From: an uncultured Candidatus Saccharibacteria bacterium | Lineage (GTDB): Bacteria > Patescibacteriota > Saccharimonadia > Saccharimonadales > UBA10212 | DNA: 64,000 bases | Direction: 5' to 3' | NCBI GenBank assembly: GCA_964483315.1 | Contig: CAZAAL010000002.1 | Location: forward strand, 72,689 to 136,688 | Shown: positions 1 through 54,976 of the stretch, in pieces | Layout of the letters: every line of letters starts with the position of its first letter | Position numbering within the stretch: the stretch's first letter is position 1 | Notes under the pieces: model-generated | Seen by the model: the letters and a program-made list of their open reading frames with translations, nothing else | The model's database searches: none | Told to the model about the DNA's origin: nothing | Made by a program: the position numbers and the translations under genes

Positions 1-408
1 ATTGTAATCTGGGACGAAGATCCTAAAAACTACATATCTAACGCCATGAAGCCGGCAAACATTGCCGAGGTAAAACTAGACGAAGCATCAAAAAAAGCCC
101 AAGTAATTGTTGAGGAAGATCAACTTAGCATTGCAATCGGTAAATCTGGTCAAAACGTGCGTCTTGCTAGTAAATTAACTGGTTACGAGCTAGATATCGA
201 AGCCAAAGAATCAGCCAAATCTGACTCTGACGAGACCGCAGTAGCCGATTCTGGTGACGAAAAAGGTGCCACAAAAACCAAAGAGCCAAGTGCCGACACA
301 AAGGTTGAGGCTAAGCCGGTAGTCCAAAAGCTTAAAAAGAAAAGCGAACTAGAAGATTCGCTGCTTTCGGCAATCGAAGAGCACGGAACCGACGAAGACA
401 AAGAGTAA
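1..408 (+). CDS. nusA: Transcription termination/antitermination factor NusA, C-terminal fragment (5' end outside the window)
   Basis: Frame 1 is open from base 1 (IVIWDEDPKNYISNAMKPANIAEV...). KH-domain motif IAIGKSGQNVRLASKLTGYELDI. Acidic, Lys-rich tail. Confidence 0.85.
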   Translation: MVIWDEDPKNYISNAMKPANIAEVKLDEASKKAQVIVEEDQLSIAIGKSGQNVRLASKLTGYELDIEAKESAKSDSDETAVADSGDEKGATKTKEPSADTKVEAKPVVQKLKKKSELEDSLLSAIEEHGTDEDKE

Positions 409-432
409 AATCCAATAATTCTATAACCTATA

Positions 433-472
433 TAAGCACCTTGACACTTCAAGGTGCTTATGCTATATTTTT
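433..472 (+). terminator. Rho-independent terminator after nusA
   Basis: 12-13 bp perfect stem ATAAGCACCTTG / CAAGGTGCTTAT with a short loop, followed by a T-run (468-472). Confidence 0.6.
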
Positions 473-481
473 GAATACAAA

Positions 482-1078
482 ATGAAAATAAAAACTGAAT
501 CTGGCTTTACAGTTCTCGAAATCGCTCTTTCGGTAGTCGTCGTTGGGCTACTGGGCGGGGTAGGCTTTTTAACGTATCAGCGAGTCAATAATCAGGATAA
601 TCGTAACTCAACAGCGTCAGACGTCGAAAAAGCAAAACCGCTCGAGTTGCAGGAAACTGAAGCTGAAGATTCCAAAAAAGTTGATGTCCCAAATACGGAG
701 TCAACTGCTGAACAAAAACAACCATCGCCACCGCCACCACCTTCAACCAAAACAACCGAATCTTCAACAAAAACCGAATCAAAGCCAAGTTATACCAGTA
801 TTTCGCTAACAGCCTATGATGCCGATATTAACGAAAGTCGGGTCAAGTTTAAGGGCGCACTACCAGGTAACTACTCGGGTAAGTGTTACTTTACAATCAA
901 AAACCTAACAACTTCGACTTACGTGTCAAAAGAAGTGTCAGTTAACAATGACGACGAATGTCAGGTTGAGGTGCCAAAATCAGAGCTATCAGCAGGCTCA
1001 TACAAGTACTACATTACATTTAAAAATAACGAATATACCGTAAAAGGTAGTTCCGACTACAAACAATTCAATCTATAA
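482..1078 (+). CDS. Type IV pilin-like protein (prepilin-type N-terminal cleavage/methylation motif)
   Basis: N-terminus MKIKTESG|FTVLEIALSVVVVGLLGG fits the G/FTxxE class III signal plus a hydrophobic helix. A Pro/Ser/Thr-rich linker and a C-terminal Cys pair follow. Confidence 0.6.
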   Translation: MKIKTESGFTVLEIALSVVVVGLLGGVGFLTYQRVNNQDNRNSTASDVEKAKPLELQETEAEDSKKVDVPNTESTAEQKQPSPPPPPSTKTTESSTKTESKPSYTSISLTAYDADINESRVKFKGALPGNYSGKCYFTIKNLTTSTYVSKEVSVNNDDECQVEVPKSELSAGSYKYYITFKNNEYTVKGSSDYKQFNL

Positions 1079-1124
1079 CGCTTAACTTTGCATCAGTTAG
1101 ACCTTTGTTCTATGCTCAGATGTA

Positions 1125-1268
1125 ATGAAGTATTTGGTGCTAATCTCAATTGGTCTAGCGTTTTATTTTATGACAGCCACGCAGATGGTAATGTCTCAGC
1201 TTGACAGCTTAAAAGATACCTATCAAAGTTTTGATGAGCTTTCACAGCAAATAGCTGTCGAAAAGTAA
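1125..1268 (+). CDS. Possible 47-aa small membrane protein (below the ORF-track cutoff)
   Basis: ATG...TAA ORF read by hand: MKYLVLISIGLAFYFMTATQMVMSQLDSLKDTYQSFDELSQQIAVEK. It has a hydrophobic N-terminus. No other support. Confidence 0.25.
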   Translation: MKYLVLISIGLAFYFMTATQMVMSQLDSLKDTYQSFDELSQQIAVEK

Positions 1269-1273
1269 AAAAG

Positions 1274-1675
1274 CTAGGCTGCTTTAGCAAGGGGTGGTCT
1301 TGATTGCCTATAGTCTAAACCATCCACGGCCTGTTCAAAAAGTAATGTCTCGTCAGATCCAAACTCCGCTACATAGTCAGGTATATCGCTAAGTTCAAGA
1401 ATAAACTCAATATCAACTTGTCGCTCGACGGTGTAAAGTTTAATCATTCTAACCACACTGGTTCTAGCGTCTTCAAGTCTTTGTGCTTCGCCTTGATTAA
1501 TAGCATCGGTTTGGGTGGTAACCCTTTCTACTTCAAAAAAAGCAATCTGCTCATCTAATATTTTATTGGCGCAATACACCGCATGTTCGTTATAAGCTGT
1601 TCTTAATGCAGTAGCTTTATCAACTCGCTCACTCATGTCTAAACTATATAACAAAACTGCAATATTTTCTAACAA
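1274..1675 (-). CDS. Hypothetical protein (133 aa)
   Basis: Clean ORF with no competing frame. No motif recognised. Confidence 0.5.
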   Translation of the reverse strand: MLENIAVLLYSLDMSERVDKATALRTAYNEHAVYCANKILDEQIAFFEVERVTTQTDAINQGEAQRLEDARTSVVRMIKLYTVERQVDIEFILELSDIPDYVAEFGSDETLLFEQAVDGLDYRQSRPPLAKAA

Positions 1676-1749
1676 ACCTCAATTTACCCGCTACACGGCT
1701 TTTTCATATATTTAAAGTTTTTTGCTACCTTGGACGGCAAGGTAGCACC

Positions 1750-1895
1750 AACCGCTGGGCTGCGTTTTTTCTTGATTGACTTTACTAGTAAAACCAAACA
1801 ACAGCCTGCGGAGCTCGCTTCGCTAAAGCAGTCCTCGTCTTTTAGTTGTTTGTTTTACATAAACTCATCATGAAAAATCCGATGCCCGAGACCCA
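1750..1895. repeat. Long imperfect-hairpin intergenic element, copy E1 (conserved core CTGCGGAGCTC...GTCCTCG)
   Basis: Arms AAACCAAACAAC (1791-1802) and GTTGTTTGTTTT (1845-1856) flank a core at 1806-1837. Tail CCGATGCCCGAGA at 1879-1891. Related copies lie at 54768-54902, 55502-55636 and 56029-56106. Confidence 0.5.
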
Positions 1896-2642: not shown

Positions 2643-4460
2643 CTATTGCTCAAGAACAAGCTCATCAGACCAAGCGACTACGATCTGTTCAATATTTGTA
2701 ATCCAATCATCAGAATTGTTGAATGAGTTAGCGCTGTTGGCAATATCACTAACTAAACTTTTCAAATTATTGTGCGTGAAATGCTTGTTGTCTTCACGCA
2801 TTTGTTTGAGCGTTTTTAGCAATTCAACGAATTGATTTATTGTGAGAGGTGCAATTTTCTGTTTATTTCCTTTATAGCCCACTGTGTTGGCGATGTGGAA
2901 TGTTTCTGCACTGTCCGTATGAATTGTTGGAGCGATGAAAATACAGTAAGCTTCATTATGTGAGTTCTCAAAATCCCGCAAATGCCGCATAACTGGTTGA
3001 CCCTCGTTGAACCATTGATCACGACCATTCAACATCGTAACTTCACAAATCATATTGAAACTATCATAAAAACACTCAATATCAGCCATACCACCTGGAG
3101 CGGTTGATGTCGGCTTATTATCATCACCTACAGGATAATTTGGCTTAATTTCTAATGCATCATTAAATGAGTGAAGTCCCATTGTTGAAAGATACTCAAG
3201 CATTATAGCCCTATTTTCAAGGTCAAAAATATTTTCCATTTGCTCAATGTATTGAGATATTGATGAAACTGGTTGAGATTTGATATGATTGTCTTTCTCT
3301 TGCAAATCTTTGCGTATTTTTCGCAAATCGTCGATATACGATGTTAAATCGTTTTCAGGCAATAGGGTAATGTCTTTTTTGCTCTCAACTGATAAGCCAA
3401 GATTATTTTGCAATTCAGCGACATCGTCATATACATCGTTGGCAATTTCAGACAATTTTTCTTTTGTCTGCCAAGGTAAGACTGGCAAATTATCATTTGC
3501 CATATATGCTACATACTCATCTTTATCTGCAAAATGTTTTGGCTTATAAAACTCGCTTTCAAATAACGCATCAATTTCAGTATGACGATTTGGCTCTAAA
3601 TCTATATAAAAACCGTTCCCACGGATACGAATAAACTTTGTTAGACGAAAATATCTAATTGCATTATCGCCATAATCTTGCAGATTTTTTAGCAATTTAT
3701 TGATTTCGGTTTGCTTATTTCTGCCAAGAAAGTTTATTGCAAACTGCTTGCGATAGATATCACGGATTTCCTTGCGTTCTTGTTTGTTTTTTCCGATTTG
3801 TAAATCTCGTAATTCAATTATCTTTTTTGCATAGCTTTCAATTTCTGCATATTTGACCAATGACGGAGCAAAAAACGAAAACTCTCGCTTGCTAATTCCT
3901 GCTGGGCTATTTCCACGTTCTAACTCAATTCTATTGACTTCACTAATCAATTTTAGTGTTGCCACAAAAGGCACAACATCATAATCGCCGTTATCGGCAA
4001 AATCATTGTTTGCTGGGTTTGGTATTTGCCATTTGATAAATGATTTTAGAAAAACATCTCCCGTATCTTTTTCGCTGACTATAAGTTTTTTACCAAGTTT
4101 AGTTATTTTAATCACACCACCATCTATAATCACAAAACCAAACTTTGTGAGTGGGTTGATTGATTGGCGACCGCGCATTGCGAAGTCTGTGTAGTTCTTT
4201 AACCTGATAATTTCTTCTATCGTATTGTCATCAATATCGCTATCTGTATCGTTGATAAGATTTATAATGGTCGGAGTTAAACCATTGTAAAATTGCGCGT
4301 TACCAAAACCATATAGACGATTTTTAATCAAAAGTTTTTGATAATTTTCCTGATTTGAATTGTCCCAAGTTTCGTTTTCAAGTGGTTTTAGGGCAACTAA
4401 AAAATCGCGCAGACGCTCTGGGTTTCTAACCGTCGTTGTAATTGACCATGCTTTCAGCAT
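2643..4460 (-). CDS. AlwI/BstNBI/MlyI/PleI-family type IIS restriction (or nicking) endonuclease
   Basis: 605 aa. Blocks recalled from N.BstNBI-type enzymes: NPLTKFGFVIIDGGVIKITKLGKKL, DVFLKSFIKWQIPNP, NAIRYFRLTKFIRIRGNGFYIDL, GGMADIECFYDSFNMICEVT...GQPVMRHL, YCIFIAPTIH, IAPLTINQFVELLK. Confidence 0.85.
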   Translation of the reverse strand: MLKAWSITTTVRNPERLRDFLVALKPLENETWDNSNQENYQKLLIKNRLYGFGNAQFYNGLTPTIINLINDTDSDIDDNTIEEIIRLKNYTDFAMRGRQSINPLTKFGFVIIDGGVIKITKLGKKLIVSEKDTGDVFLKSFIKWQIPNPANNDFADNGDYDVVPFVATLKLISEVNRIELERGNSPAGISKREFSFFAPSLVKYAEIESYAKKIIELRDLQIGKNKQERKEIRDIYRKQFAINFLGRNKQTEINKLLKNLQDYGDNAIRYFRLTKFIRIRGNGFYIDLEPNRHTEIDALFESEFYKPKHFADKDEYVAYMANDNLPVLPWQTKEKLSEIANDVYDDVAELQNNLGLSVESKKDITLLPENDLTSYIDDLRKIRKDLQEKDNHIKSQPVSSISQYIEQMENIFDLENRAIMLEYLSTMGLHSFNDALEIKPNYPVGDDNKPTSTAPGGMADIECFYDSFNMICEVTMLNGRDQWFNEGQPVMRHLRDFENSHNEAYCIFIAPTIHTDSAETFHIANTVGYKGNKQKIAPLTINQFVELLKTLKQMREDNKHFTHNNLKSLVSDIANSANSFNNSDDWITNIEQIVVAWSDELVLEQ

Positions 4461-4481
4461 AGCCTCATTATGCCATTTAAA

Positions 4482-6470
4482 TCAGTAATTTGTAATAAGT
4501 ACCTCTATTGTTCTATTGTTTTTCGCACTAGAGTGATAATTTGAGTTTTTGTAGTGAAAATTTAGTTTATGAACTTTATATCTATATCTTTTAGCCCATT
4601 CTTTCATTATCTCGTTAATTTCGCCTTTATGTTCTATAACATTTGATAGAGCAAATCTAATTCTTTTTCTATCTAATCTTGTTAATAGCGAATATAAATC
4701 TTTCTCATCTTTTTCTGTCCAACCGCCCATTTCGTTATAACTGGCGAGCCCTAATAAATATGGCGGGTCTAAATATAAAAAATCATCTTTTGCCAACGGC
4801 ATTTGCTCAATATCACGAAAATCACAACTCTTAAACGTAATATTTTTCTCATTTGAGATTTGATTAAAGGCGGCAACATTTTTTCTTGAACTGCCGTTAT
4901 AATCTCGCTTGCCAACTGGCAAATTAAACTCTCCCCTTGAATTAAACCTAATTTGATTATTGAAAGAATAAAGAACAAGTACCAACAATAAATCAATTCT
5001 GGTTTTATCATTATTAAACTCACTGCGAAGTTTTAGAAAAGCATTTTTGTTGTATTGCCCAAGACCAGACGAACTATCAACGCCATAATGGTCGTAACCT
5101 TTTATATAGCTTTGACTTAAACCAAAATCTTCTATGATGTCAATTACTTTTTGATTCAAATCTTCAAAATTGTAGTTTTGAATTAGTTTTAGGAGATTTA
5201 CAACATAACGATTTTTTTCAATACAAATTATATTTTTTGCAGTGGCGTTAATGCCAACATTAGCACCACCAGAAAATACATCGTAAAAAGCCTTAATGTC
5301 GTTTGGAAGTAGTTTTGTTATTTGTGGCAATAATTTATGTTTGCCACCAGTGTAATTTAATGGTGATTTTACAAACCCACTTTGAACAGGGTTATTCTTT
5401 GATGCAAAAACCTTCTTATTAGATTTGGTTGCAACATCTATTTTGCACAAAAATATGCGTTCTTTTAGGTCGTTTTTATTGGATTTACCAGTAGTGAACT
5501 GCTTAAAATCTGTTTCATAAATCTGCACATTTCCTCGCCGTTTTAGTGCGGACAGAATCTCGTGGTCGCTTATAGTTGATTGGGATCGGGCGTTGCCCGA
5601 AGCCCCCATATCGTTGTAAGAAACAAGAATATATTTTGCGTCAATACTATCTATTAAATCACCGAAAGCAACGCCCGCAGATTTCATATTGTATTTGCTT
5701 TTTATGTGAGAACGGTCAATTTTTTTGGCAACGCCAAAAACTTTTTCTTTTTTCCAAGTGGCTATATTCTCTAACAAATGATAGGCATCGGAGTATTGTC
5801 TTGAATTATACGGTGGGTCAATATATATAACATCTGCTTTGATTTTTTTAACTAATTCGTTTGCGTCGTCTTTATATATTTCGGTGGGGTACTTTGAGTT
5901 TGTTATATCGAGTGGCAATAGAAATAGCTTTTTGGCAGGAATATCAATTTTTCTATATGCATCATAATGACCAACCGTGTTGGCAATTCTATCAAGTGCG
6001 TAGATAAGTGATGTTAATAAATATGATTTTTCTCTGCTGGTTATTATTTTTTCTTCAAATAACTTTTCAATATCATCTCTGATAATACCTATTCTTTTGG
6101 CATTTTCTGCGTCAAAATAGGTATTTGAAAAGTTCTTGGAAAAATAGTTTTCATTGAACTTCTTTACTTCGATAAGGTTATAATATTTCAATCGTTCTTT
6201 TAGTATTTCTTCTCTGATTTTGTCTTTTCCAAAAAATGCAATGTAAATATGTGAGTTTGATTCTAAAATGTCATTTACGATAATTTTGGAGCGATTGCAG
6301 AAGTGATTGGCGACCGTACCAGTCCCAGCAAATATGTCAGCAAAAGAGTCAAACTGTATTTTTTCTTTTTCGATAATACTATCAATAAATGAAAGTAGCT
6401 TAGTTTTAGAACCAAGATAGCGCCTTTGAGCTATACAAAACTTGTTGTTTCCAAAATATGCATCGTACAT
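4482..6470 (-). CDS. Fused tandem Dam-like (D12 class) N6-adenine DNA methyltransferase, two MTase modules in one 662-aa protein
   Basis: Two sets of motifs. Module 1: YLGSKTKLL, FADIFAGTGTV, IYIDPPYNSRQY. Module 2: LNYTGGKHKLL, FYDVFSGGANVG, LYLDPPYLLGLASYN. It is adjacent to and co-oriented with the endonuclease. Confidence 0.85.
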   Translation of the reverse strand: MYDAYFGNNKFCIAQRRYLGSKTKLLSFIDSIIEKEKIQFDSFADIFAGTGTVANHFCNRSKIIVNDILESNSHIYIAFFGKDKIREEILKERLKYYNLIEVKKFNENYFSKNFSNTYFDAENAKRIGIIRDDIEKLFEEKIITSREKSYLLTSLIYALDRIANTVGHYDAYRKIDIPAKKLFLLPLDITNSKYPTEIYKDDANELVKKIKADVIYIDPPYNSRQYSDAYHLLENIATWKKEKVFGVAKKIDRSHIKSKYNMKSAGVAFGDLIDSIDAKYILVSYNDMGASGNARSQSTISDHEILSALKRRGNVQIYETDFKQFTTGKSNKNDLKERIFLCKIDVATKSNKKVFASKNNPVQSGFVKSPLNYTGGKHKLLPQITKLLPNDIKAFYDVFSGGANVGINATAKNIICIEKNRYVVNLLKLIQNYNFEDLNQKVIDIIEDFGLSQSYIKGYDHYGVDSSSGLGQYNKNAFLKLRSEFNNDKTRIDLLLVLVLYSFNNQIRFNSRGEFNLPVGKRDYNGSSRKNVAAFNQISNEKNITFKSCDFRDIEQMPLAKDDFLYLDPPYLLGLASYNEMGGWTEKDEKDLYSLLTRLDRKRIRFALSNVIEHKGEINEIMKEWAKRYRYKVHKLNFHYKNSNYHSSAKNNRTIEVLITNY

Positions 6471-6767
6471 ATCAATAGAATAGCATATTATCTATGTTCC
6501 TCGTTTATTAGGCAGGGACTTTTGCCGTAGTTAACTCCGAAAGGTGTTATAGTGTATCTCGTTTTCGCCAGCGTACAGCCAGTTAATCCAAAATAAAGTT
6601 GGTGGCTAACTTTTCTTACCAGTCAGCAGTGATTTAGGCAACATCAAAAAAGATAAATAAAATTTACACCCAGACCTACATAAATATCCCAAACTTGTTG
6701 TCTAAGGTTAAACTACATATAACATGCATTTATCTAGTGTTGATATAATTAAAGGGTTAACAATTTA

Positions 6768-6898
6768 AGTATCAAGAGTGTGGCGAGAGTTCTAGCTTAA
6801 TGACCCACCACCAACCCATTTAGTTGGGTGGTACACCTAGCCCGCAAAGGGAAGGATAATTGTACAAAATCCTTTCCACGCGCAGTAAGGATATTTTT
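6768..6898 (+). promoter_or_regulatory. Diverged SAM-I (S-box)-like riboswitch leader, paralogue of the metK leader
   Basis: Shares these blocks with the metK leader at 15582-15757: TATAATTA (6744), GTTAACAATTTAA, TATCAAGAGTG, CCCGCAAAGGGAAGGAT, ATCCTTTCC and AAGGAT-Tn-ATGTCAAAA. The central P2/P3 segment is different. Confidence 0.5.
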
Positions 6899-7222
6899 AT
6901 GTCAAAAAAATTAATCTTCATGATTTCGGCTCATGGAAAAACAAAAGAGCAATTCAAAAAAGAAGTTTTAAGTGAACTGGTTAGGTTCCATGCCAGCCAA
7001 CTTGGGCTAAATAAGTGCGAAAATTGCGGCGAATACAAAGGCACTGCTAAAGAAAAAGGGCATAACATTGAGGTTATTTGCAGCTGCGATGGTATTTTGT
7101 GCGCAAAGTGCAATAAAAGCATTATTCGACGCCCAATGTCTAACCACTTTTCAGGCAAAGACTGCAAAATTTGGCACACGTTTTACTTACTTAACAGCTG
7201 TAAGGACTGCCGCCAAGTTTGA
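6899..7222 (+). CDS. Cys-rich small protein (107 aa), putative zinc-ribbon-like, unknown function
   Basis: ATG at 6899 sits in the same position relative to the leader as the metK ATG. CxxC-type motifs: CENCGEY, CSCDGILCAKCNKS, CKDCRQV. The track start at 6860 is a less likely TTG. Confidence 0.6.
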   Translation: MSKKLIFMISAHGKTKEQFKKEVLSELVRFHASQLGLNKCENCGEYKGTAKEKGHNIEVICSCDGILCAKCNKSIIRRPMSNHFSGKDCKIWHTFYLLNSCKDCRQV

Positions 7223-7315
7223 ATTGAAAATAAAATCCCTAGGCCCTTGCAGCTTCTGATGAATGAACTTTTGTGTCTGGGGATCGGATTTTTTCGTTTG
7301 GGGTATAATTACATT

Positions 7316-7918
7316 ATGAATAAAGCGCTTAAGTTTATATTCGTTTTATTGGTTGTTGTTATTGGTGGAGTAGTGGTTTATCAACAGATGCAGATTAAGC
7401 AGTTAAAAGATGACACGACTGCGATCCAGGCGGAAGTTAAAAAGAATGCCGAAAGTATTGCAGCTACTGATAGGGCGGCATTCTTCTTGCCGTATAGCGC
7501 ATATAGTTTACAGCGAATGGCTTACAATGCCACAACCAATACACTGTATATTCCGGAACTAAAAGTTAAGATTCCTTACAGCGATTTAGCAAGCACTTTG
7601 CTATACTCACCGCGTTTTAATGGAGCAAACGGCTCAGCCGGTGATGTTGATGTGACCACCGATTCTTTTGCACCGCCTCAAGAAACTACTCAACTTAATT
7701 GTACAAATATTATTCGACTTAAAGTTGAAGACAAACCGAATCCCTATAATCCGGCCGAAAAAGCTACCACATACGATCTTGGCGGTGGCAAGAAGTTACA
7801 AGTTTATGTTTTTAGCGGTGAGCTAGAAGGCAATAGCCAGTGCAAAAACGCCTACGAAGCTCAAAAAATAGACACTCAAGAATTTGCCAAAGCCTTCGCC
7901 GGGGCAAGCTCTTACTAA
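7316..7918 (+). CDS. Hypothetical membrane-anchored/secreted protein
   Basis: Start MNKALKFIFVLLVVVIGGVVVY (signal anchor). TATAAT at 7304-7309 lies 6 nt upstream of the ATG. The track start at 7247 is unlikely. Confidence 0.6.
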   Translation: MNKALKFIFVLLVVVIGGVVVYQQMQIKQLKDDTTAIQAEVKKNAESIAATDRAAFFLPYSAYSLQRMAYNATTNTLYIPELKVKIPYSDLASTLLYSPRFNGANGSAGDVDVTTDSFAPPQETTQLNCTNIIRLKVEDKPNPYNPAEKATTYDLGGGKKLQVYVFSGELEGNSQCKNAYEAQKIDTQEFAKAFAGASSY

Positions 7919-8046
7919 AAACCGCTTACTTATATTTATAAACAAAAAAAGCTGATTGATTCGGTCTAGTCGGACGCACTAACAGTTGACGAGACAATGG
8001 GTGGATATTGCAATAAAAGACTAGTTGTGGGATAATATGCAACATT

Positions 8047-8331
8047 ATGTTAGGAAATTTTGAAGGCCAACCGGAGCCTAAGCCGGTTAAAATAATTAAC
8101 GAAATTATTGAAGAAAAACTTATAAAAGATAGCTTACTGCCTGAACCTGTTGAAGAAAAACTTATAAAAGATAGCTTACTGCCTGAACCTGAGGACTCTG
8201 GTAGGAACATGGTCGGTGGGCTGATTGATTTTGCGACTGATGACGAAGCAGCCCGAAAACCAATCGAGCCAAAAGAGCGTGACTTTTTAGGTGGCCTTGA
8301 TTTTAGAGCAGAAGATCCAACCCAAAATTAA
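8047..8331 (+). CDS. Hypothetical acidic protein with an internal 14-aa tandem repeat
   Basis: The ORF contains EEKLIKDSLLPEPV/EEKLIKDSLLPEPE, encoded by a 42-bp tandem duplication. Confidence 0.45.
   Translation: MLGNFEGQPEPKPVKIINEIIEEKLIKDSLLPEPVEEKLIKDSLLPEPEDSGRNMVGGLIDFATDDEAARKPIEPKERDFLGGLDFRAEDPTQN
8110..8191 (+). repeat. 42-bp tandem direct repeat x2 inside a coding region
   Basis: GAAGAAAAACTTATAAAAGATAGCTTACTGCCTGAACCTG occurs twice back to back. Confidence 0.9.
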
Positions 8332-8333
8332 AA

Positions 8334-9026
8334 ATGCCAAATATTTTAGCTCATGTTCACGTAGCCGAACAACTATATGGTTCTGGTGTCAGTGATGTAT
8401 TGCTTGCTAGTGCTATGCCTGATTTTTGGGGTATGCATGGAGATAAAAATTCTGAGAAGAAAGTCAAAGAGTATCTTTCGGATGAAAGTAGATCGGGCAT
8501 ATCGTATTATGGTTACCGAGCGCATAAAGACTTAGACATTGAGTATAATCAGGATCCAAATTACGTAAAAGTTACGTCGCCATTAACAAAAAATCTTATG
8601 CAAGTTGGGCTAGGATACAAGGCCAGTAGGCTAAGCGCTCATTTTATAGCCGATTTGATGCTCGATGGAGCATTGGCTGAAAGAGATACAGCCAGAAATT
8701 CGTATGAGTTTTTAGCATCTGAAGTTTTACTTGGCGAAACATTTCTTAAGCGTGAGTTTGTTTTGGATGGGTTAAGGGCGTATGTTAAGAGATATTTTTC
8801 AAGAGGCTATCCGAACTATTATGCTAACCCGCTTGCAGTTGCAACAATCACGCACGACCGTTTAGTTAGGACTGCACAATCAAAACACCCGGACAATCCA
8901 ACAAAGTATACTTTTCGCCCCGAACAGATTGAGACTGTAGCGGATGTCGTCGACCTACATACTGAGAGAGTTTATGACCTTACAACCAGAGCACTGCAAA
9001 GATCAATCAGAATCATCAAAGTTTAA
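8334..9026 (+). CDS. Hypothetical protein, possibly acyl carrier protein phosphodiesterase (AcpH)-like
   Basis: N-terminus MPNILAHVHVAE...LLASAMPDFWG resembles the AcpH start MNFLAHLHLA...LADF. The family call is weak. Confidence 0.35.
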   Translation: MPNILAHVHVAEQLYGSGVSDVLLASAMPDFWGMHGDKNSEKKVKEYLSDESRSGISYYGYRAHKDLDIEYNQDPNYVKVTSPLTKNLMQVGLGYKASRLSAHFIADLMLDGALAERDTARNSYEFLASEVLLGETFLKREFVLDGLRAYVKRYFSRGYPNYYANPLAVATITHDRLVRTAQSKHPDNPTKYTFRPEQIETVADVVDLHTERVYDLTTRALQRSIRIIKV

Positions 9027-9068
9027 CCAAATGCTTGCAGTGAGCTCAGTATTGGGTAGAATAGTTTA

Positions 9069-9266
9069 ATGAGTGAAGGTTTATCATTTGAAGAGGGCAG
9101 TCCAGACCCTGATGAGCGTGAGGCTCAACGATTCTTTGAATTGTTGCAATCAAGCGGTGACGAAGGCACAACTTTTGTGGGTGATGTAAATAATCCGATT
9201 GTACGTGAATTGTTCGAGACGGCTCGCTTAGCAGGATACATAATTAAGATTCCTGAGGATAACTAA
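9069..9266 (+). CDS. Hypothetical small acidic protein (65 aa)
   Basis: TAGAAT at 9057-9062 lies 6 nt upstream of the ATG. No motif recognised. Confidence 0.4.
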   Translation: MSEGLSFEEGSPDPDEREAQRFFELLQSSGDEGTTFVGDVNNPIVRELFETARLAGYIIKIPEDN

Positions 9267-9300
9267 AGAATGAGAATATTCCCCAGCAAGCAGTTAAAAA

Positions 9301-9498
9301 ATGAACCCAGAACATAATAATCCCGAGCCAGATCAAACGCCTGTTTTACCGGAATGGCACGAATCCAATGGTGAAAAAAGCCTTGCTGGGTTTTTATTGG
9401 GCGAGACGCTAGTGTTTGTTGCTAGCGTGCCAGCTTTGGCATATGTCGGACTAAAAAGTGTAATTTCTAAAGCCAGTAAGAACCCTAAACAACACTAG
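9301..9498 (+). CDS. Hypothetical small membrane protein (65 aa)
   Basis: One hydrophobic segment (LAGFLLGETLVFVASVPALAYVGL). Confidence 0.4.
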   Translation: MNPEHNNPEPDQTPVLPEWHESNGEKSLAGFLLGETLVFVASVPALAYVGLKSVISKASKNPKQH

Positions 9499-9534
9499 GA
9501 GTATAATAAGAACTATAAATAGGGGAGGTGCACT

Positions 9535-9954
9535 ATGGCAATTGATTTAACAGACTTTGGGGCAGACCCATGGGTAGTAGATGTTGAAGCGCTGACCGTT
9601 GAAAACGATAAATTTAGGGTTACCAAATGGACGGGCGAGCACCTGCAAATGACAGTAATGAGCATTCCGGTTGGCGGGCAAGTTGGCCTAGAAGCCCACG
9701 ACGGCATTGATCAATTTTTAAGAATCGAAAAGGGCAGTGCCAAAGTTATGATGGGCAAGACTAAGGATAATCTAGACCAAGAATGGGAGGCCGGTGCGGA
9801 TTTTGCCGTATTTGTACCTGCCGGAACATGGCATAACATTGTAAACACTGGGCAAGACGATTTAAAACTGTACTCAATTTATACACCACCCGAGCATGTC
9901 CACGGCACCGTCCACGAAACTTACGAAGAATCCGAAGCCAGCCACAATCATTAG
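9535..9954 (+). CDS. Cupin-domain protein
   Basis: Cupin motifs GGQVGLEAHDGIDQFLRIEKG and VFVPAGTWHNIVNTG. SD GGGGAGGTG upstream. Confidence 0.7.
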   Translation: MAIDLTDFGADPWVVDVEALTVENDKFRVTKWTGEHLQMTVMSIPVGGQVGLEAHDGIDQFLRIEKGSAKVMMGKTKDNLDQEWEAGADFAVFVPAGTWHNIVNTGQDDLKLYSIYTPPEHVHGTVHETYEESEASHNH

Positions 9955-10004
9955 TGTATGTAAATTTTCCGAATAAGATTTGGTATGGGGTATAATAAAA
10001 CCCT

Positions 10005-10811
10005 GTGAGTAAAATCATAATAAAAGCAGAAAAGGTTGTAAAAAGTTTTGGTAAGACCAAAGCTGTTGATGGTATTGATTTTGAAATTAAAGCCGGCGAA
10101 ATTTTTGCATTTTTAGGTCCAAACGGTGCTGGCAAATCTACCACCATTAAGATGCTAACTACCATGCTTAGGCCGACATCTGGCAAGCTGATCTTAAATG
10201 GACACGATGTTACTAAAAATCAATCCCAGGTGCGAAAATCGTTTGGTATTGTTTTTCAAGACCCCTCACTAGACGAAGAGTTAACCGCAAAAGAAAACCT
10301 TGAGCTGCACGCTGTTTTGTATCATGTTCCAAAAAATCAACAGGCTGATCGGATTGATGAATTGCTAAAGTTAGTTGGACTTTTTGATAGAAAAGATTCA
10401 TATATAAAAACCTTTTCTGGCGGTATGCGACGCCGGCTAGAGATTGCCCGCGGCCTTATGCATCACCCTAAAATTTTATTTTTAGACGAGCCGACACTAG
10501 GACTTGATACACAAACGCGCAACTTGCTATGGGACTATGTCCGAAAGCTGTCTAAGCACGAGGGTATGACAATCTTTTTTACTACTCATTATCTTGATGA
10601 GGCTGAAGAAGTTGCTGGCCGAATCGCAATTATTGACCACGGAAAAATTGTAGCAAGCGGAACAAGCAAAGAACTAGCTAAACAAACTGGCACCAATTCG
10701 CTAGAACAGGCGTATTTAAAACTAACCGGTGATAGTATTCGTGATGAATCAAGCGCTAGCAATGATGGTTTAAATATGCGTACCGCACTTAGGAACAGGA
10801 GCCTACGCTAA
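10005..10811 (+). CDS. ABC transporter ATP-binding protein (ABC-2/DrrA-like exporter)
   Basis: Walker A GPNGAGKST, signature FSGGMRRRL, Walker B ILFLDEPTLGLD. GTG start 8 nt after TATAAT (9991-9996). Confidence 0.9.
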   Translation: MSKIIIKAEKVVKSFGKTKAVDGIDFEIKAGEIFAFLGPNGAGKSTTIKMLTTMLRPTSGKLILNGHDVTKNQSQVRKSFGIVFQDPSLDEELTAKENLELHAVLYHVPKNQQADRIDELLKLVGLFDRKDSYIKTFSGGMRRRLEIARGLMHHPKILFLDEPTLGLDTQTRNLLWDYVRKLSKHEGMTIFFTTHYLDEAEEVAGRIAIIDHGKIVASGTSKELAKQTGTNSLEQAYLKLTGDSIRDESSASNDGLNMRTALRNRSLR

Positions 10812-11557
10812 TGCAAGTAGTACATGTGCTATGGCTTAGGCAAATGCGTCGTTTTACTAGAAGCCGATCAAGGATTTTAGGTTCTATTGGCCAGCCTATG
10901 CTATTTTTAGTTGCGCTTGGCTATGGACTTGGCGCTGTTTATGCAGCTGCTGGCCAGGATAATTATCTGGAATTTTTGGTACCGGGAGTAGTTGTTCAAA
11001 CAATCTTATTCAGTTCGATCTTTTGGGGTACATCAATTATATTTGATAGGCGATTTGGATTTTTATCGGAACTGTTAGTGGCACCGGTATCACGCTTAAG
11101 AATTTTACTAGGTAGTACCTTGGGTGGCGCAACAATCTCATTTATTTTAGCGACAATGTTGTTAATAATTGCCACTATTTTTGGATTTAGGCCATATGAC
11201 TGGATGCTGGTTCCCATTGCATTGTTAATTATGTTAGTTTTTTCTTTGGCGATGACGTTTTTTGGCGCTGGTATCGCCAGTATGGTTGAAGATTTTCAAG
11301 GGTTCCAGGCGATTACTAACTTTTTAGTTATGCCCCTGTTCTTTTTATCGAGTGCACTGTATCCGCTTGATACTGCTCCGAATGTTTTAAAATTTTTAGG
11401 TACCATAAATCCGATTAGCTATGCCGTTGATTTACTTAGGCATGCATTAATTGGGGCCGGTCATTTTGCGATTGCACTAGATGTAGCAGTATTGCTAGTA
11501 ACGCTTTGTGTTGGAATTGTTTTTGCGGTTAGTCGTTTTAACCGAATCCAAATGTAG
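10811..11557 (+). CDS. ABC-2 type transporter permease
   Basis: Six predicted TM segments. Its start overlaps the stop of the ATPase gene (TAATG). Confidence 0.8.
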   Translation: MQVVHVLWLRQMRRFTRSRSRILGSIGQPMLFLVALGYGLGAVYAAAGQDNYLEFLVPGVVVQTILFSSIFWGTSIIFDRRFGFLSELLVAPVSRLRILLGSTLGGATISFILATMLLIIATIFGFRPYDWMLVPIALLIMLVFSLAMTFFGAGIASMVEDFQGFQAITNFLVMPLFFLSSALYPLDTAPNVLKFLGTINPISYAVDLLRHALIGAGHFAIALDVAVLLVTLCVGIVFAVSRFNRIQM

Positions 11558-15580: not shown

Positions 15581-15607
15581 GTATAATTAGTTTTGTTAAC
15601 AATTTAA

Positions 15608-15750
15608 TTTATCAAGAGTGCAACCAAGGGAACGAGCCCGACTTAAGTTGCCAGCAACCAGCCATAATCGGCCCGGTGCTAAATCTCGCCCGCAAAGGGA
15701 AAGATGAGCTAAGTTTCATATCCTTTCCTTGAGCGACGACGAAAGGATTT
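15608..15750 (+). promoter_or_regulatory. SAM-I (S-box) riboswitch with SD-sequestering expression platform
   Basis: TTTATCAAGAGTGCAACCAAGGGAACGAGCCCGA...GTTGCCAGCAACC...GGTGCTAAATCTCGCCCGCAAAGGGAAAGATGAG matches the SAM-I consensus blocks. ATCCTTTCC can pair either with GGGAAAGAT or with GAAAGGAT at the SD. It lies directly upstream of metK. Confidence 0.85.
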
Positions 15751-19873: not shown

Positions 19874-20113
19874 GTGGCAAATGACGAAAAACAGCAACAA
19901 ATTAATTTCGGGATTGATCCGAACATTGTTAAAACCTTATATGTTGATTCCTATCTAATTAGCAACAATCAACACGTAGTAACCTTTAGTTTTGCTCAGG
20001 CTTTACCTGATCCGACCCAGCACAACATTGTTGCAAGAGTTTCGATGACTAAAGCCCAAGCTAAGGAGTTTTTATCAACCCTAAATGAGCATATTGAGAA
20101 GTTTGAGGTATAA
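19874..20113 (+). CDS. Small protein, DUF3467-like (tentative)
   Basis: 79 aa. The pattern YVDSYLIS...VVTFSFAQ...VARVSMTKAQAKEFLSTLNEHIEKFE resembles that family. GTG start. Confidence 0.4.
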   Translation: MANDEKQQQINFGIDPNIVKTLYVDSYLISNNQHVVTFSFAQALPDPTQHNIVARVSMTKAQAKEFLSTLNEHIEKFEV

Positions 20114-20115
20114 AA

Positions 20116-20142
20116 TTAGCACTCTCACTTGACGAGTGCCAA
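20116..20142. promoter_or_regulatory. CIRCE-type inverted repeat (HrcA operator) overlapping the clpC promoter
   Basis: TTAGCACTC-N9-GAGTGCCAA versus consensus TTAGCACTC-N9-GAGTGCTAA. TTGACG (20129-20134) plus an 18-bp spacer plus TACAAT (20153-20158). ATG 7 nt later. Confidence 0.75.
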
Positions 20143-20165
20143 CATAGTGATTTACAATAAAATGT

Positions 20166-22676
20166 ATGAATCCAAATTCACCCGATTTTCAAGATTTTTT
20201 GAACCACCTAACAGATAATGCACTGAGCAGTTTAAAGCATGCTGACCAAATTGCTAGGGTCGGTGGTAACGCTTATGTTGGCACCGAACATTTACTGCTG
20301 GGTGTGCTAGCTCAAGATGGTTCGATGGCATCTAAAATCTTGCAGGACAGTGGCATTACACTTGATAGAGCCAAATTGGCACTGAATTTAACACCTAAAA
20401 CTGTGGTTATGAGCATGGGTTCACGGGGGTTAAACGAAATCGCCAAGCTTACACTTAAAATGGCTTGGGATATTGCCCAAGAGTTTGGTCAAGATTTTTG
20501 CGGAACCGAACATATTTTGTATAGTATCCTTACTCAAAAGAACGCCAGAGCAACCATTTTACTTAAAGACATGAACGTTGATGTTGATCGTTTAATTGGC
20601 GAAATTGAGCAATTTTTAAACCGCCAGCAGTTTGAAGAGAGTGACTCATCTGGACTTCGGGGCTCAAAACTAAAATCCAAGAAGAAAACAACCCTAGAAT
20701 TTTTTGGTACCGACATGACAGCCGAAGCAAGATCAGGCAAGCTTGATCCGGTTATTGGTCGTGAAGCACAAATTAAAAGGGTTATTACTATCCTCAACCG
20801 ACGCACTAAAAATAACCCTGTATTAATTGGCGAACCAGGTGTAGGCAAAACAGCGATTGTAGAGGGCTTGGCTCAACGTATAGTCAACGAAGAGGTGCCC
20901 GACAGTTTAATTGATAAACGTATAATTATGCTGGATTTGGCGGCTATGATTGCCGGTACTAAATATCGTGGCGAGTTTGAAGACAGGCTAAAAAAGGTTA
21001 TGTCAGAGCTTGAGAATGATACAAAAACCATAGTCTTTATTGATGAGTTGCACTTAATAGTTGGCGCTGGTGCCGCCGAAGGCTCAATGGATGCAGGTAA
21101 TATGCTAAAACCAATGCTTGCAAGGGGTAAAATGCAATTAATTGGTGCTACCACTACCAGCGAATACACTAAATATATTGAAAAGGATGCTGCCCTAGAG
21201 CGAAGGTTCCAGCCGGTTCAGGTACCCGAGACAAATGTAGCCGAAACAACTGCAATCCTAAAAGGCTTAAAAAAGCATTACGAAAGCTACCACGGCGTAA
21301 ATATTGCAGACGAAGTTGTTGAAGATACTGTAACATTTGCCAAGCGCTATATTAATGATCGTTACATGCCCGATAAGGCCATAGATCTACTTGATGAAAC
21401 TGCTGCCCATCTAAAAGTTGATAAAGGCAAAACTCCGCCGGCTGTCAGAAACCTACAAAAAGAGATCAAGCTCGTTAATTCGCGGATTGAAGACGCCGTT
21501 GAGGCCGAAAATTATGAAAAAGCTGCCAGCGAAAAACAAAAGGCTAGCCAACTGGAAGCCGAACTTAAAAAACTTTCTGATAAACACAAGGCAGGTAAGT
21601 CGCTTACTATGACCAGCGACGATGTTGCTGAGACGGTTGCCAGAATAACAGGTGTGCCTGTAACCAAAGTCATTAAAAGTGAAGCTAAGTATTTGGCTAA
21701 TCTTGAAAAGAATATGGGTAAATACATAATCGGTCAACCAGAGGCTGTTACCCAAATATCTAAAGCATTAAGACGCAGCAGAACCGGTATTTCAAGTTCA
21801 GAACGGCCAATTGGATCATTCATATTCCTTGGCCCGACCGGAGTTGGCAAAACCGAAATGGCGAGAGTCCTAGCCAAAGAATTTTTTGGTAGCGAATCAG
21901 CGTTAGTAAAAATTGATATGAGCGAATTTGGCGAGCACCACACGGTTAGTCGTCTGGTTGGAGCACCTGCCGGTTATGTAGGGTATGATGATGGCGGCCA
22001 ACTGACCGATAAAATTCGCCGACAACCATACAGTGTTGTGCTTTTTGACGAAATCGAAAAAGCTCACCCCGACGTATTCAACATGTTGCTACAGATTTTA
22101 GAAGATGGTCGTCTAAGCGATGCAAAAGGCCGACCAATTGACTTTACTAATACCGTAGTAATAATGACCAGTAATATTGGCGCTAAAAAATTGCAAAAAG
22201 CCGGTGGTTTTGGCTTTAACCTAGCTGATGATCATAGCTCGGGCGGGTTAGATAGCCTATACGAATCCAATAAAGAAAAAGTCTTGGATGAGCTTAAAAA
22301 GATGATGCGACCAGAGCTTTTAAACCGCATCGATCAGGTAATGGTCTTTAGAACGCTATCAAAAGAAAATGTACTTAGAATTTTAGATATTCAAGTCGAC
22401 GATTTACGAAAACGATTGGTAAAAAGTGGAATTGGCGTTGAGCTGAGCCGACAAGCAAAGAATTATTTAATAGAAAAGGGCTATGACGCAGAAAACGGAG
22501 CTCGCCCTCTAAGGCGACTTATTCAGGACACGCTCGAAGATCAAATCGCTACTGGCTTAATCGACAGCACTTACCAAAAGGGCGATATAATTAAAGTTGG
22601 CGTTAAAGACGATAAGTTAACCTACACTAAACTGAGCGAATCGCCTACCAAACAAGACGCCAAAACAAAGCCTTAA
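20166..22676 (+). CDS. clpC: ATP-dependent Clp protease ATP-binding subunit ClpC (class I AAA+)
   Basis: Two Clp_N repeats ([20 protein letters not shown]). Two Walker A sites ([18 protein letters not shown]). UVR-like middle segment [21 protein letters not shown]. Confidence 0.9.
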
Positions 22677-33630: not shown

Positions 33631-34071
33631 TTATGTGCTCTTAAGACTTACAAACCCTCTACTTGTAACAAACGTGTTAGGCATAACTGGAGCGTTGTCA
33701 GCGGTCATTTCATCGATACCCTGATCTTGCATAAAAACTGTACCGATTTTTTTGACAGCTTCTTCTAATGTAAGCCCTTCTTCAACCATCACTCTACCAA
33801 TAATCTCTTCACTTTCAAGGTCTAGCATTAACCCCATTTTTTGCCCTGGATAACCAAAACCCGATCTACCTTGTCGTTCGGGTAAATCCTTAAGTTCATC
33901 AAGTCTTAATCGTTTGTAATCATCGGCTAAGTCAGTATCATACCAAGCTATCCCAGCCATCAACACATCATGCTCTGTTGTTTTTTTGTGTGATGCAATA
34001 ACGCCTAAGTTGGCAATAAATTCTTGGCTAATCGGGAACATTATTCCCTCGGGTTCAGCTAATTGGTCCAT
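33631..34071 (-). CDS. Hypothetical protein (146 aa)
   Basis: SD AGGAG 8 nt upstream of the ATG. Its upstream region runs straight into the GC-rich block. Confidence 0.55.
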   Translation of the reverse strand: MDQLAEPEGIMFPISQEFIANLGVIASHKKTTEHDVLMAGIAWYDTDLADDYKRLRLDELKDLPERQGRSGFGYPGQKMGLMLDLESEEIIGRVMVEEGLTLEEAVKKIGTVFMQDQGIDEMTADNAPVMPNTFVTSRGFVSLKST

Positions 34072-34090
34072 CTAAAAACTCCTGTTTAAT

Positions 34091-34462
34091 TTGGTGGAGG
34101 AAAACGGGGCACGTTTGAACCGGGTGTCCGAGCTCGTGGCCCAGCTCCACAACAGGGGTGCTAGGAAGGCCTCCCCACCCGCCAAGCCCCGGGCCGGGGA
34201 CATCAAGGTGGCTGTGGTGCAGACATTGGAGCTGTCAGCCGAGCCGATGAGCCTCCGAGATGTCCACGTGGCCTGCGAAACGCTACTGGGGCGGCAAGTG
34301 CCGTACAACACGGTCAAGGACTGTGTTCATAAGCACTCTAGAGGCAAGGCACCGATCTTCAAGCGGGTTTGCAGAGGTTTGTATCAGGCTGATGCTGACA
34401 AACCTTCGACAGCCCTACTGCTTCAGAGGAGACGGCATCCAGGGTCAGGTGGCAACACCTAA
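34091..34462 (+). CDS. Hypothetical protein in the GC-rich block (possibly 5'-truncated; winged-helix-like C-terminus)
   Basis: TTG start right at the composition junction. The ORF is followed by two hairpins: GGCAACACC/GGTGTTGCC and CCAGG/CCTGG. Confidence 0.35.
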   Translation: MVEENGARLNRVSELVAQLHNRGARKASPPAKPRAGDIKVAVVQTLELSAEPMSLRDVHVACETLLGRQVPYNTVKDCVHKHSRGKAPIFKRVCRGLYQADADKPSTALLLQRRRHPGSGGNT

Positions 34463-34551
34463 GAATACGAACTTGTTCATATACTCAGGTGTTGCCCCAG
34501 GATTAACGCACCTGGGTGTTACAGACCTTGCGGTCTTGCGGCCCGTTAGGG

Positions 34552-34953
34552 CTATTCCTCTTCTTCTCCGGCCATCTCTTCACTGGCGAAGTACCCCATC
34601 TCACCAAGATGCAGTGAAACAGAGAACGACACAACAGTGAGCTTCTCAGGACGTCGGCTGAACCGGATCGTCTCTTCGATTGCCGTAGCAATCGCTTCGG
34701 CCAGTTCGTCCGACTGCTTGACACGCTCCTCGTCGGCGTGAGCCAGGATGATCACCTGAATGTCGTGGATCAAACTGTCCCACTTGCGTGCCTGAAGGAA
34801 CATGAACGAGAAGTCGTTCTGCGTCAGAGGGCGATGTTCCACACTCAGAAAGACCGCGAGTGGTCCCCTCAGACGCTTGCGAAGGCTGCCGAGGAAGAAG
34901 CCACCGTCAAGCTTTGCAACCTCTTTGGTGTGCTGCACGATGACGTGTGGCAT
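34552..34953 (-). CDS. Tautomerase-superfamily protein, 5-carboxymethyl-2-hydroxymuconate isomerase-like (tentative)
   Basis: N-terminus MPHVIVQHT resembles CHMI MPHFIVECS (catalytic Pro1). ~130 aa. A 1-nt overlap couples it to the upstream ORF. Confidence 0.4.
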   Translation of the reverse strand: MPHVIVQHTKEVAKLDGGFFLGSLRKRLRGPLAVFLSVEHRPLTQNDFSFMFLQARKWDSLIHDIQVIILAHADEERVKQSDELAEAIATAIEETIRFSRRPEKLTVVSFSVSLHLGEMGYFASEEMAGEEEE

Positions 34954-35447: not shown

Positions 35448-35618
35448 TCCTTCCAGCGATCTTGACTAGAAATAAAAAGGACGTTCGGAAAGCCTCTGGC
35501 TCTCCCAGAGGCCCTCAACAAACAGGCTTACTTTATCATAATTTGTCTGTTTAGACAACCGTTGTTACTTCATCAACGCAACAAAACGAACATTGAATCA
35601 TCGACCTTTTAATAACAG

Positions 35619-35648
35619 ATAGAAAATGCTTATCCGGTGGATAAGCAT
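35619..35648 (-). terminator. Hairpin terminator downstream of tRNA-Leu
   Basis: ATGCTTATCC-GGT-GGATAAGCAT (35626-35648), followed on the minus strand by TTTCT. Confidence 0.5.
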
Positions 35649-35656
35649 AAGCTATA

Positions 35657-35741: not shown

Positions 35742-35831
35742 AAGATTTTTACAGATGTAAATTATATACACATTTTAGCATTTTAACCATACTTTTTTAC
35801 TAAGTAAGCTTTTGCTCTATAATTACCCTTA

Positions 35832-38943: not shown

Positions 38944-38965
38944 TTGTTTGTTCTAAAATAATTAC

Positions 38966-54687: not shown

Positions 54688-54690
54688 AAA

Positions 54691-54902: not shown

Positions 54903-54976
54903 GGATAAGATGTCTATTGACAAACAGGTCGATTAGGAGTATAATATTGTATTAAATTAACGGGGGAGGCTTGATT

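Follow-up and report, generated by a model that had tools for sequence, protein, structure and literature searches.

A cross-phylum family of intergenic hairpins with a near-invariant apex, represented by four copies in a Saccharibacteria genome segment

The locus and its hairpin copies

A segment of 64,000 nucleotides (the window) from an uncultured Candidatus Saccharibacteria bacterium (GenBank assembly GCA_964483315.1, contig CAZAAL010000002.1, positions 72,689–136,688 of the forward strand) was analysed for long intergenic hairpins, of which four copies (E1–E4) are present. These four hairpins are part of a widespread family with a near-invariant apex and genome-specific stems. The window carries nusA, rpoB/C, rpsL/G, fusA, tuf and rpsJ, and its S10 protein matches only metagenome-assembled genomes of Saccharibacteria, the best at ~95% identity. 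The copies, each built around a long imperfect hairpin (LH), are as follows.

1755–1893, minus strand: LH of E1, with the apex at 1806–1837 (minus-strand reading CGAGGACTGCTTTAGCGAAGCGAGCTCCGCAG).
1725–1747, minus strand: hp1 of E1, a perfect hairpin of 9 bp (GCTACCTTG-ccgtc-CAAGGTAGC), on the 3' side of the LH in the minus-strand reading.
54767–54905, minus strand: LH of E2, with the apex at 54821–54854.
54689–54754, minus strand: proximal module of E2, a terminator-like hairpin (54689–54712) plus hp1 (54731–54754).
55399–55639, minus strand: E3, a second complete copy, with the LH at 55501–55639, the apex at 55555–55588 and hp1 at 55465–55488.
56010–56106, minus strand: E4, a decayed one-armed copy, with the apex at 56019–56050, an arm at 56058–56071 and the tail CCGATGCCCAGA at 56093–56104.

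In a preliminary description made from the sequence, the arms (1791–1802 and 1845–1856), core (1806–1837) and tail (1879–1891) of E1 had been quoted together with the cores and arms of the other copies and the short copy; all were found in their places. The core pattern CTGCGGAGCTC-N(5–20)-GTCCTCG occurs three times in the window, against none expected (100 shuffles). The LHs fold beyond shuffled sequences (E1, z = −3.4 on the plus and −2.7 on the minus strand; E2, z = −4.3 and −6.0, respectively). The energy of the E2 LH is −50.1 kcal/mol on the minus strand versus −34.7 kcal/mol on the plus strand, and the minus strand is the better-folding one for both E1 and E2.

The recurrences of the core at 54821–54854 and 55555–55588 are present but are not independent, as E2 and E3 lie inside a direct repeat (54733–54890 = 55467–55624, 158 nt, 100% identity); there are therefore two independent full sequences and not three. 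On the left the repeat continues at 94% identity over 52 nt (54689–54740 = 55399–55450) with an additional 24-nt indel, the order in E3 being terminator-like hairpin, 24-nt insertion, hp1 and LH. E2 and E3 differ only in these left 52 nt and in the last 14 nt of the right arm, which in E3 still pair. The repeat begins at the hairpin 54689–54712, a bidirectional terminator directly past the rpsJ stop codon that forms part of the repeated unit; the LH and hp1 themselves have no T-run.

The arms had been described as differing in sequence while remaining self-complementary. They are self-complementary, but those of E1 and E2 are diverged homologues, not unrelated sequences (~60–65% identity, with CATAAAYT and CCCGAGA in common), and the similarity reaches into the downstream promoters. 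A perfect hp1 of 9–10 bp stands beside each LH of E1, E2 and E3. E4, which lies between a small membrane open reading frame (ORF) and a TIR gene, had been taken for a shortened copy at 56029–56106; its arm and tail are there, but it also retains a diverged apex at 56019–56050, which aligns without gaps to the E1 core (23/32 identical, with the differences mostly transitions), and only one arm is absent. Taken alone, E4 folds no better than shuffled sequences (z about −0.5 to −0.7). The four copies fall into two sub-lineages, E1/E4 and E2/E3.

Extension to a family

The strict core pattern, which is exact in E1 and E2, gave no match in genome, metagenome and viral collections, and nothing new was obtained with the window copies by blastn, fuzzy regular expressions or nhmmer in the window and 80 Saccharibacteria loci (1.3 Mb). 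A relaxed pattern was then defined as TGCGRARCTNNNT(N)TCRYTMAARCA(N)GYCCTCG, with the variable positions chosen from the decayed copy E4 and the expected number of chance matches well below one. It matched at least 120 metagenome contigs, and an identical 31-mer, TGCGGAACTCGCTTCGCTCAAACAGTCCTCG (CGAGGACTGTTTGAGCGAAGCGAGTTCCGCA on the minus strand of the window), was contained in 85 of 123 hits. The 31-mer is always at the tip of a hairpin, the arms of which are locus-specific but self-complementary; they fall into 67 clusters without detectable mutual similarity, and the GC fraction of the metagenome loci listed ranges from 0.34 to 0.63. Megaplasmids of the Ralstonia solanacearum complex, including the finished replicon of GMI1000 (NC_003296, e.g. 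302,931–303,151), hold 2–13 copies each with the variant apex GGAGG-CTGTCTGAGCGAAGCGAGTTTG-CCTCC. The exact 31-mer was not matched in Escherichia coli genomes (distant search), in plasmids (28-nt-word search) or in viral contigs, and a phage collection matched it only in part, over short stretches; searches of phages and plasmids with the window elements returned terminator-like fragments only.

A covariance model (R1) was built from the apex and closing stem of 92 metagenome members, with the window copies excluded. It recovered all four of them on the minus strand: E1 at 1797–1846 (46.9 bits, E = 9e-12), E2 at 54812–54863 (40.4 bits), E3 at 55546–55597 (40.4 bits) and E4 at 56010–56059 (32.7 bits, E = 5e-7). 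R1 also scored the Ralstonia copies and nothing else above 15.3 bits in 1.39 Mb; the next hit within the window or the Saccharibacteria set reached 14.2 bits (E = 0.79). In contrast to the four copies in the 64-kb window, R1 found none in the rpsJ loci of 80 other Saccharibacteria (1.3 Mb).

A Saccharibacteria-like contig (L204) has a consensus apex, the same 5' foot (GGTCTGGGCATCGG) and an E1-type hp1. Copies within a genome have arms in common, as in E1 and E4, and the arms of L204 are of the same type. The window copies are slightly decayed members of a Saccharibacteria sub-lineage, because L204 carries the consensus apex on E1/E4-type arms. L204 has a hotspot gene in common with contig L003. 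It also holds a 5.1-kb 23S rRNA gene, in which a group I intron is weakly matched, together with a 5S rRNA gene (5366–10937), and its element sits ~650 nt past the latter.

Rfam 15 was searched in gathering and E-value modes with the window, 16 + 6 metagenome loci and two Ralstonia loci. No family matched, and the hits overlapping the element were spurious ones to miRNA hairpins. Identities resembling tRNA, signal recognition particle RNA, 6S RNA and hammerhead ribozymes were rejected, as they had no Rfam support even in E-value mode. Literature searches with 13–16-mers of the apex or of hp1, and with descriptive terms, returned nothing relevant. We could not find the family described in Rfam 15 or in the literature searched, and it is apparently undescribed.

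Apex, closing stem and polar architecture

On the minus strand of the window the unit is an imperfect hairpin of 130–200 nt with lineage-specific arms and a nearly invariant apex, the consensus of which is GAGGAC-UGUUU-GA-GC-GAA-GC-GA-GUUCC-GCA between a flanking C and G. The tip is the heptamer GCGAAGC, in which two pairs enclose a GAA loop, with tandem G/A on either side and GGA/UCC as the closure. The three pairs that close the apex show double changes in 49, 38 and 34 of 92 sequences, and one closing column pair has the composition GC19/CG18/UA18/AU10. The covariation score of the closing stem was 0.315 versus 0.125 in shuffles, none of 500 of which reached the observed value, and at most 0.131 with slid partners. 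The proposed family, in which the apex is conserved and the arms compensate, is thereby borne out: further copies exist, R1 recovers those of the window, the covariation is supported and no known repetitive extragenic palindromic (REP) or terminator family matched.

The mini-hairpin at the tip also retains its pairs by compensatory changes in independent lineages. GC is replaced by AU in L162, L181, L163 and E2, and CG by UA in L138 and E4 (where the tip is kept as GTGAAAC), while L108 has a G.U intermediate (GAGCGAAGTGAG). The loop varies between GAA, GATA, GACA and GAAA with the G...A retained in all of them. A peptide-coding reading of the core was rejected owing to a 2-nt indel and stop codons.

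The architecture is polar. hp1 lies ~10 nt 3' of the LH on the minus strand, often with a third hairpin or a terminator beyond it, and a perfect hairpin of at least 8 bp is found 3' of the LH in 25 of 91 elements, and 5' of it in 4 of 91. A large subclass has the module CTTTTCTTTGG-TTACTTTCTTTTG-loop-CAAAAGAAAGTAA-CTCG, which is followed by a third hairpin (hp2) with a CGAAA loop; the window hp1 aligns with it. hp1 as mere flanking DNA was rejected, since it is conserved across the family. A further observation concerns a subclass (e.g. L161, L094 and L109) in which the U-rich tract that precedes hp1 is a mirror of that hairpin's pyrimidine arm (CTTTTCTTT / CTTTCTTTT with AAAAGAAAG), the layout required for an intramolecular triple helix or an alternative pairing switch.

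A constant centre between inverted flanks is also the signature of unremoved hairpin adapters. An artefact, whether from adapters, chimeric fold-back or chance similarity, is nevertheless extremely improbable. Finished Ralstonia replicons, among them that of GMI1000, contain the element, the imperfect arms have mismatches that are conserved in a lineage-specific way and stand beside non-palindromic hp1/hp2 modules, the apex variants are compensatory and no chance matches are expected in the window.

Strand preference and the RNA alternative

The strand bearing GCGAAGC folds better in 97 of 110 elements. With the core swapped for a neutral loop it was still the better strand in 77 of 100, by a mean of −5.5 kcal/mol (Wilcoxon p = 6e-10). 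Selection thus acts on the element as a single strand with a fixed polarity. The favoured strand has 275 G.U pairs versus 199 on the other, a modest excess. Its GC skew is negative in 56 of 81 loci (p = 8e-4), and it is thus biased in orientation with respect to replication and to gene direction: the downstream gene is opposite in 70 cases and on the same strand in 36, and 27 spacers are convergent versus 11 divergent.

A structured noncoding RNA, either a small RNA or a cis-acting module, transcribed from the minus strand of the window is a real possibility, although we hold it to be somewhat less than probable. The LH would then show an invariant apex with k-turn-like or loop-E-like tandem G.A pairs and a GAA-capped helix to a universal RNA-binding partner or to another RNA, hp1 with hp2 or a terminator would form the 3' end, and the multiple copies would be paralogous RNA genes. 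Several features suit such an RNA. Folding is strand-asymmetric with more G.U pairs on one strand, the mini-hairpin of L108 passes through a G.U intermediate, and the several hairpins are laid out in a polar manner with the perfect hairpin on the 3' side. The hp2 loops of the subclass are conserved as CGAAA, a U-rich tract precedes hp1, and the minus strand of E2 ends in an intrinsic terminator (54711–54686). Hexamers resembling a −10 box lie 4–6 nt before the hairpin foot in E1, E4, L204 and L083 (by eye), and covariation of this quality is usually read as evidence for RNA.

Other observations fit an RNA gene poorly. Sites scoring at least 9 of 12 as σ70-like promoters are not enriched beside the hairpin on either strand (4 of 91 versus 2 of 91), so a dedicated promoter was rejected across the 91 members, and most members have no terminator after hp2. 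The element is mostly convergent with or antisense to its neighbours and runs against the GC skew, which would be unusual for an RNA gene. A.C mismatches are nearly as frequent as G.U pairs (199 versus 275), copies are gained or lost between close strains and occur in same-strand or inverted pairs, and no Rfam 15 family matched even at permissive thresholds. The series of G...A loops suits d(GNA)/d(GNNA) mini-hairpins better than GNRA loops of RNA, and GCGAAGC is the classic extraordinarily stable DNA mini-hairpin. Overall, we lean slightly towards an element that acts at the level of (single-stranded) DNA.

Neighbouring genes, gain and loss

The element has no linked gene. At most 8 of 120 loci fell into one cluster of neighbouring genes, and the Pfam families found beside the element across the family were of housekeeping type, e.g. 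tRNA synthetases, SecA, PFK, aconitase and FlhB; neither a transposase nor an integrase was among them, and on these grounds the idea of a conserved neighbour was rejected. The preliminary description placed every copy at the border of an accessory gene, which holds within the window but not for the family, which elsewhere adjoins housekeeping genes. Copies also occur as same-strand pairs 193–425 nt apart (L085, L129 and L153) and as a head-to-head pair in GMI1000.

At the E1 site a comparison was made with Logan contig L083 (SRR12262946), which is 98.7% identical to window positions 1–1655. It keeps the segment 1686–1758 with hp1 (93%) and the far flank GACCCAAA, and lacks the long hairpin of E1, in place of which there are 8–9 nt with both flanks retained. 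Positions 190–730 of L083 hold a cassette that is absent from the window and is situated between a gene for a 120-amino-acid protein and hp1; it consists of a consensus promoter, a 90-amino-acid membrane ORF (GC-rich-looking for this genome) and a terminator-like hairpin. Because L083 carries this promoter-bearing cassette, the E1 spacer appears to be a mosaic of small promoter-bearing cassettes.

The Ralstonia glgB–glgX spacer (L205 2240–2660, L207 and L208) exists in three forms with ~99% flank identity: two complete head-to-head elements (GMI1000), hp2–hp1–hp2' only (SL3755) and a single hp2 (RS639). The series suggests stepwise deletion between repeated palindromic hp1 or hp2 arms. Presence and absence of copies between strains, which the preliminary description had raised, are thus seen both for the E1 LH and in this spacer. 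The family is multi-copy, patchy and gained or lost between close strains.

Enrichment in convergent spacers and downstream of gene ends, with E2 and E3 placed after stop codons and unrelated long hairpins in the spacers of other Saccharibacteria, might be expected of a passive element, i.e. a terminator, an insulator or selfish palindromic DNA without a partner, the apex of which is shared by ancestry only. We regard such an element as improbable. A 31-mer that is identical in most hits while the arms have diverged into tens of clusters cannot be neutral ancestry, the LH has no T-run, and compensatory changes in a mini-hairpin of only 2 bp indicate selection for fine structure.

The unrelated hairpins just mentioned have low-complexity AT-rich repeat arms and fold better on one strand (e.g. 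−48 versus −29 kcal/mol). They came from a palindrome scan that was crude, genome-wide and not discriminating, and are located as follows.

L011 2894–3063: unrelated long hairpin.
L054 3756–3925 and 1678–1847: unrelated long hairpins.
L002 10302–10471: unrelated long hairpin, just after rpsJ.
L002 2364–2533: unrelated long hairpin, directly upstream of rpsL.

The rpsJ–rplC island and the NUDIX cassette

The distance from rpsJ to rplC is 8.1 kb in the window (54687–62828) and between 138 bp and 7.6 kb in 70 other Saccharibacteria. Because the spacing varies from 138 bp to 8.1 kb, the spacer is a hypervariable insertion hotspot in Saccharibacteria. In the window it contains NUDIX, a small membrane ORF, a TIR protein of CAP12/Pycsar type (PADLOC PDC-S35/PycTIR hits), DUF6879, CAP and cupin genes. 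The NUDIX gene (54971–55396) lies between the direct copies E2 and E3 and has its own promoter (TTGACA-17-TATAAT at 54917–54945, a 12/12 σ70 match); a search for homologues found none that are close. A Logan contig that is identical through rpsJ breaks exactly within the E2/E3 repeat, as assemblies do at repeats. The other rpsJ–rplC islands examined have neither flanking repeats nor copies of the element.

This arrangement recalls an integron, and the preliminary description had implied such a reading. The element would be a folded attC analogue at which a tyrosine recombinase moves promoter-bearing cassettes at hotspots such as rpsJ–rplC. NUDIX is bracketed by direct copies, the identity of which stops in the right arm directly after ...CTGTTT while the arms beyond still pair; E1, E2/E3 and E4 are all at accessory-gene borders, the rpsJ–rplC gap is a hypervariable hotspot, and one strand folds better, as do attC bottom strands. 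That the favoured strand lies mostly on the leading-strand template also matches sedentary chromosomal integrons. The defining features nevertheless fail. The R'' (RYYYAAC) and R' (GTTRRRY) boxes of attC are absent from E1, E2 and E4, the ends of which differ between copies, and conservation is inverted, with an invariant centre and variable ends. The cassette has its own promoter (54917–54945), no integrase was seen among the window ORFs scanned, the neighbours across the family are housekeeping genes rather than cassettes and the other hotspots bear no copies. We consider an integron-like site improbable. The link to accessory genes is probably local and reflects tolerance of repeats or recombination between copies, not a family-wide rule.

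Interpretation

The reading that we favour, with a confidence that comes close to an even chance, is that of a non-autonomous single-strand DNA hairpin element recognized in trans. The element would act as a single-stranded hairpin, with the apex as a sequence-specific recognition site for a factor encoded elsewhere, and would spread in the manner of REP/REPIN elements, most likely via a single-stranded DNA intermediate. The multi-copy and patchy behaviour, the gain and loss between close strains, the lack of a partner in cis and the lack of promoter enrichment speak for it, as do the conserved apex on covarying stems with unrelated arms, the strand preference, the G...A loop series, the modest G.U excess and the negative GC skew. 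In the window the copies probably serve at least as portable homology for the gain and loss of cassettes. A single crossover that joined a resident copy to a small circle bearing one copy together with the NUDIX gene would place NUDIX between direct copies; such an origin is proposed because E2 and E3 differ nowhere outside the left 52 nt and the last 14 nt of the right arm. The 734-bp NUDIX unit could be excised by the reverse crossover between the 158-nt identical copies.

A number of observations weigh against this trans-recognized DNA element. Neither a target-site duplication nor a clean insertion junction was found at the E1/L083 or Ralstonia sites; the E1/L083 junction holds the 8–9 nt of filler, and the Ralstonia variants are simpler as deletions between hp1 or hp2 arms than as insertions. 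Near the copies no gene for a transposase, a recombinase or an HUH enzyme was seen, and none was among the first 25 of 73 Pfam families listed for the other window ORFs. Invariance of a 30-mer across phyla points to a universal partner; we know of no hairpin-specific mobilizing enzyme that is so universal. The favoured strand is mostly on the leading-strand template, and the opposite strand bias has been reported for IS200/IS605 and REP elements. Strand-biased G.U tolerance, the U-rich tract, GAAA-type hp2 loops and tandem G.A pairs are classic features of RNA.

At a more general level, and leaving the DNA or RNA nature aside, the family may represent a new cross-phylum class, namely a structured single-stranded element with a 30-nt ultraconserved apex on a freely evolving stem and with a widespread partner, although we put this somewhat below an even chance. 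Such a class could be a new widespread noncoding RNA or a new kind of hairpin-recognizing mobilization or recombination system, without a linked transposase, by which accessory genes are shuffled. If true, the partner would be common to the tiny genomes of Saccharibacteria and to Ralstonia. If the family is truly undescribed, it would be a rare case of near base-for-base conservation of a short motif across very different bacteria, an ultra-small parasitic Saccharibacterium among them, with fully diverged stems, and an invariant apex on such stems would imply a specific and widespread molecular partner. The family would also offer a handle on how gene-poor genomes of the candidate phyla radiation, with almost no visible mobile-element genes, nonetheless acquire and lose accessory and defence genes at hotspots such as rpsJ–rplC, and on the question of whether the spread or use of a hairpin repeat calls for a linked enzyme. 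Members of the family are readily annotated with the covariance model and the 31-mer.

Further features of the window

Several other features were noted. An AlwI-family restriction endonuclease lies beside a large fused D12-class adenine methyltransferase at 2643–6470 on the minus strand; the block may be strain-specific, as the sequence of L083 past the E1 site differs. A SAM-I riboswitch-like site at 6766–6862 on the plus strand (41.4 bits; gathering score 44.4), upstream of ORF 6860–7222, is a second one in addition to the clear SAM riboswitch at 15606–15710. A tandem pair of 42-nt units (93% identical) is located at 8101–8184 within overlapping ORFs.

A 48-nt repeat (20113–20160 and 38914–38961, 79% identity) contains the CIRCE-like inverted repeat TTAGCACTC-N9-GAGTGCCAA. 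Its copies lie upstream of ORF 20166–22676, probably a Clp-type AAA ATPase (Pfam), and of ORF 38966–39562, and suggest heat-shock control of HrcA type. The stretch 34000–36000 has a GC fraction of 0.52 compared with ~0.40 elsewhere and long overlapping ORFs on both strands, next to tRNA-Leu (35657–35741, minus strand). Foreign DNA or an RNA gene that has escaped annotation could account for it, and there was no further Rfam match at the gathering score.

Comparison with known systems

The nearest functional analogues are REP/REPIN elements and the candidate motifs of comparative surveys that may act as single-stranded DNA or as RNA. REP/REPIN elements, which RAYT (Y1 HUH) transposases mobilize, are likewise ORF-less intergenic hairpins that are multi-copy, often paired and enriched at gene ends; they differ between close strains, and REP sequences are mobilized in trans as single strands. 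REP sequences, however, are 20–40 nt long with a conserved 5' GTAG, are species-specific over their whole sequence and usually number hundreds of copies, whereas the present element is 130–200 nt long, is conserved (across phyla) in its apex only, has no GTAG at the foot and is low in copy number. No RAYT was seen among the ORFs scanned in the 64-kb window.

With attC sites the element shares imperfect hairpins (~60–140 nt in attC), folding as single strands, strand preference, conservation of structure above sequence and a position at accessory-gene borders. attC differs in conserving its ends (R''/R') and varying in the centre, in needing IntI and in flanking promoterless cassettes, all of which fail here. 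Miniature inverted-repeat transposable elements (Correia/NEMIS, ERIC, RUP and BOX) are non-autonomous long-hairpin repeats of 100–250 nt in spacers that may carry promoters or terminators. Their terminal inverted repeats are conserved, target-site duplications flank them and no such family extends beyond a genus or family of hosts; the termini of the present element vary (E1 versus E2), no duplications were seen and it spans very different GC contents and phyla.

The STAXI, sbcC, ssNA-helicase and radC motifs from the surveys of the Breaker laboratory are similar in being hairpin-based and supported by covariation, with function and DNA or RNA nature undecided. They are in Rfam and are tied to particular genes, in contrast to this family, which has no Rfam 15 match and no preferred neighbour. 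Finally, Hirao et al. are said to have described d(GCGAAGC) as an extraordinarily stable DNA mini-hairpin, reportedly a physical motif in phage origins and a few genes. The exact heptamer is the apex tip on the favoured strand, and its variants keep two pairs around a G...A loop; in the present repeat family the heptamer is set in an invariant context of 30 nt on a long covarying stem.

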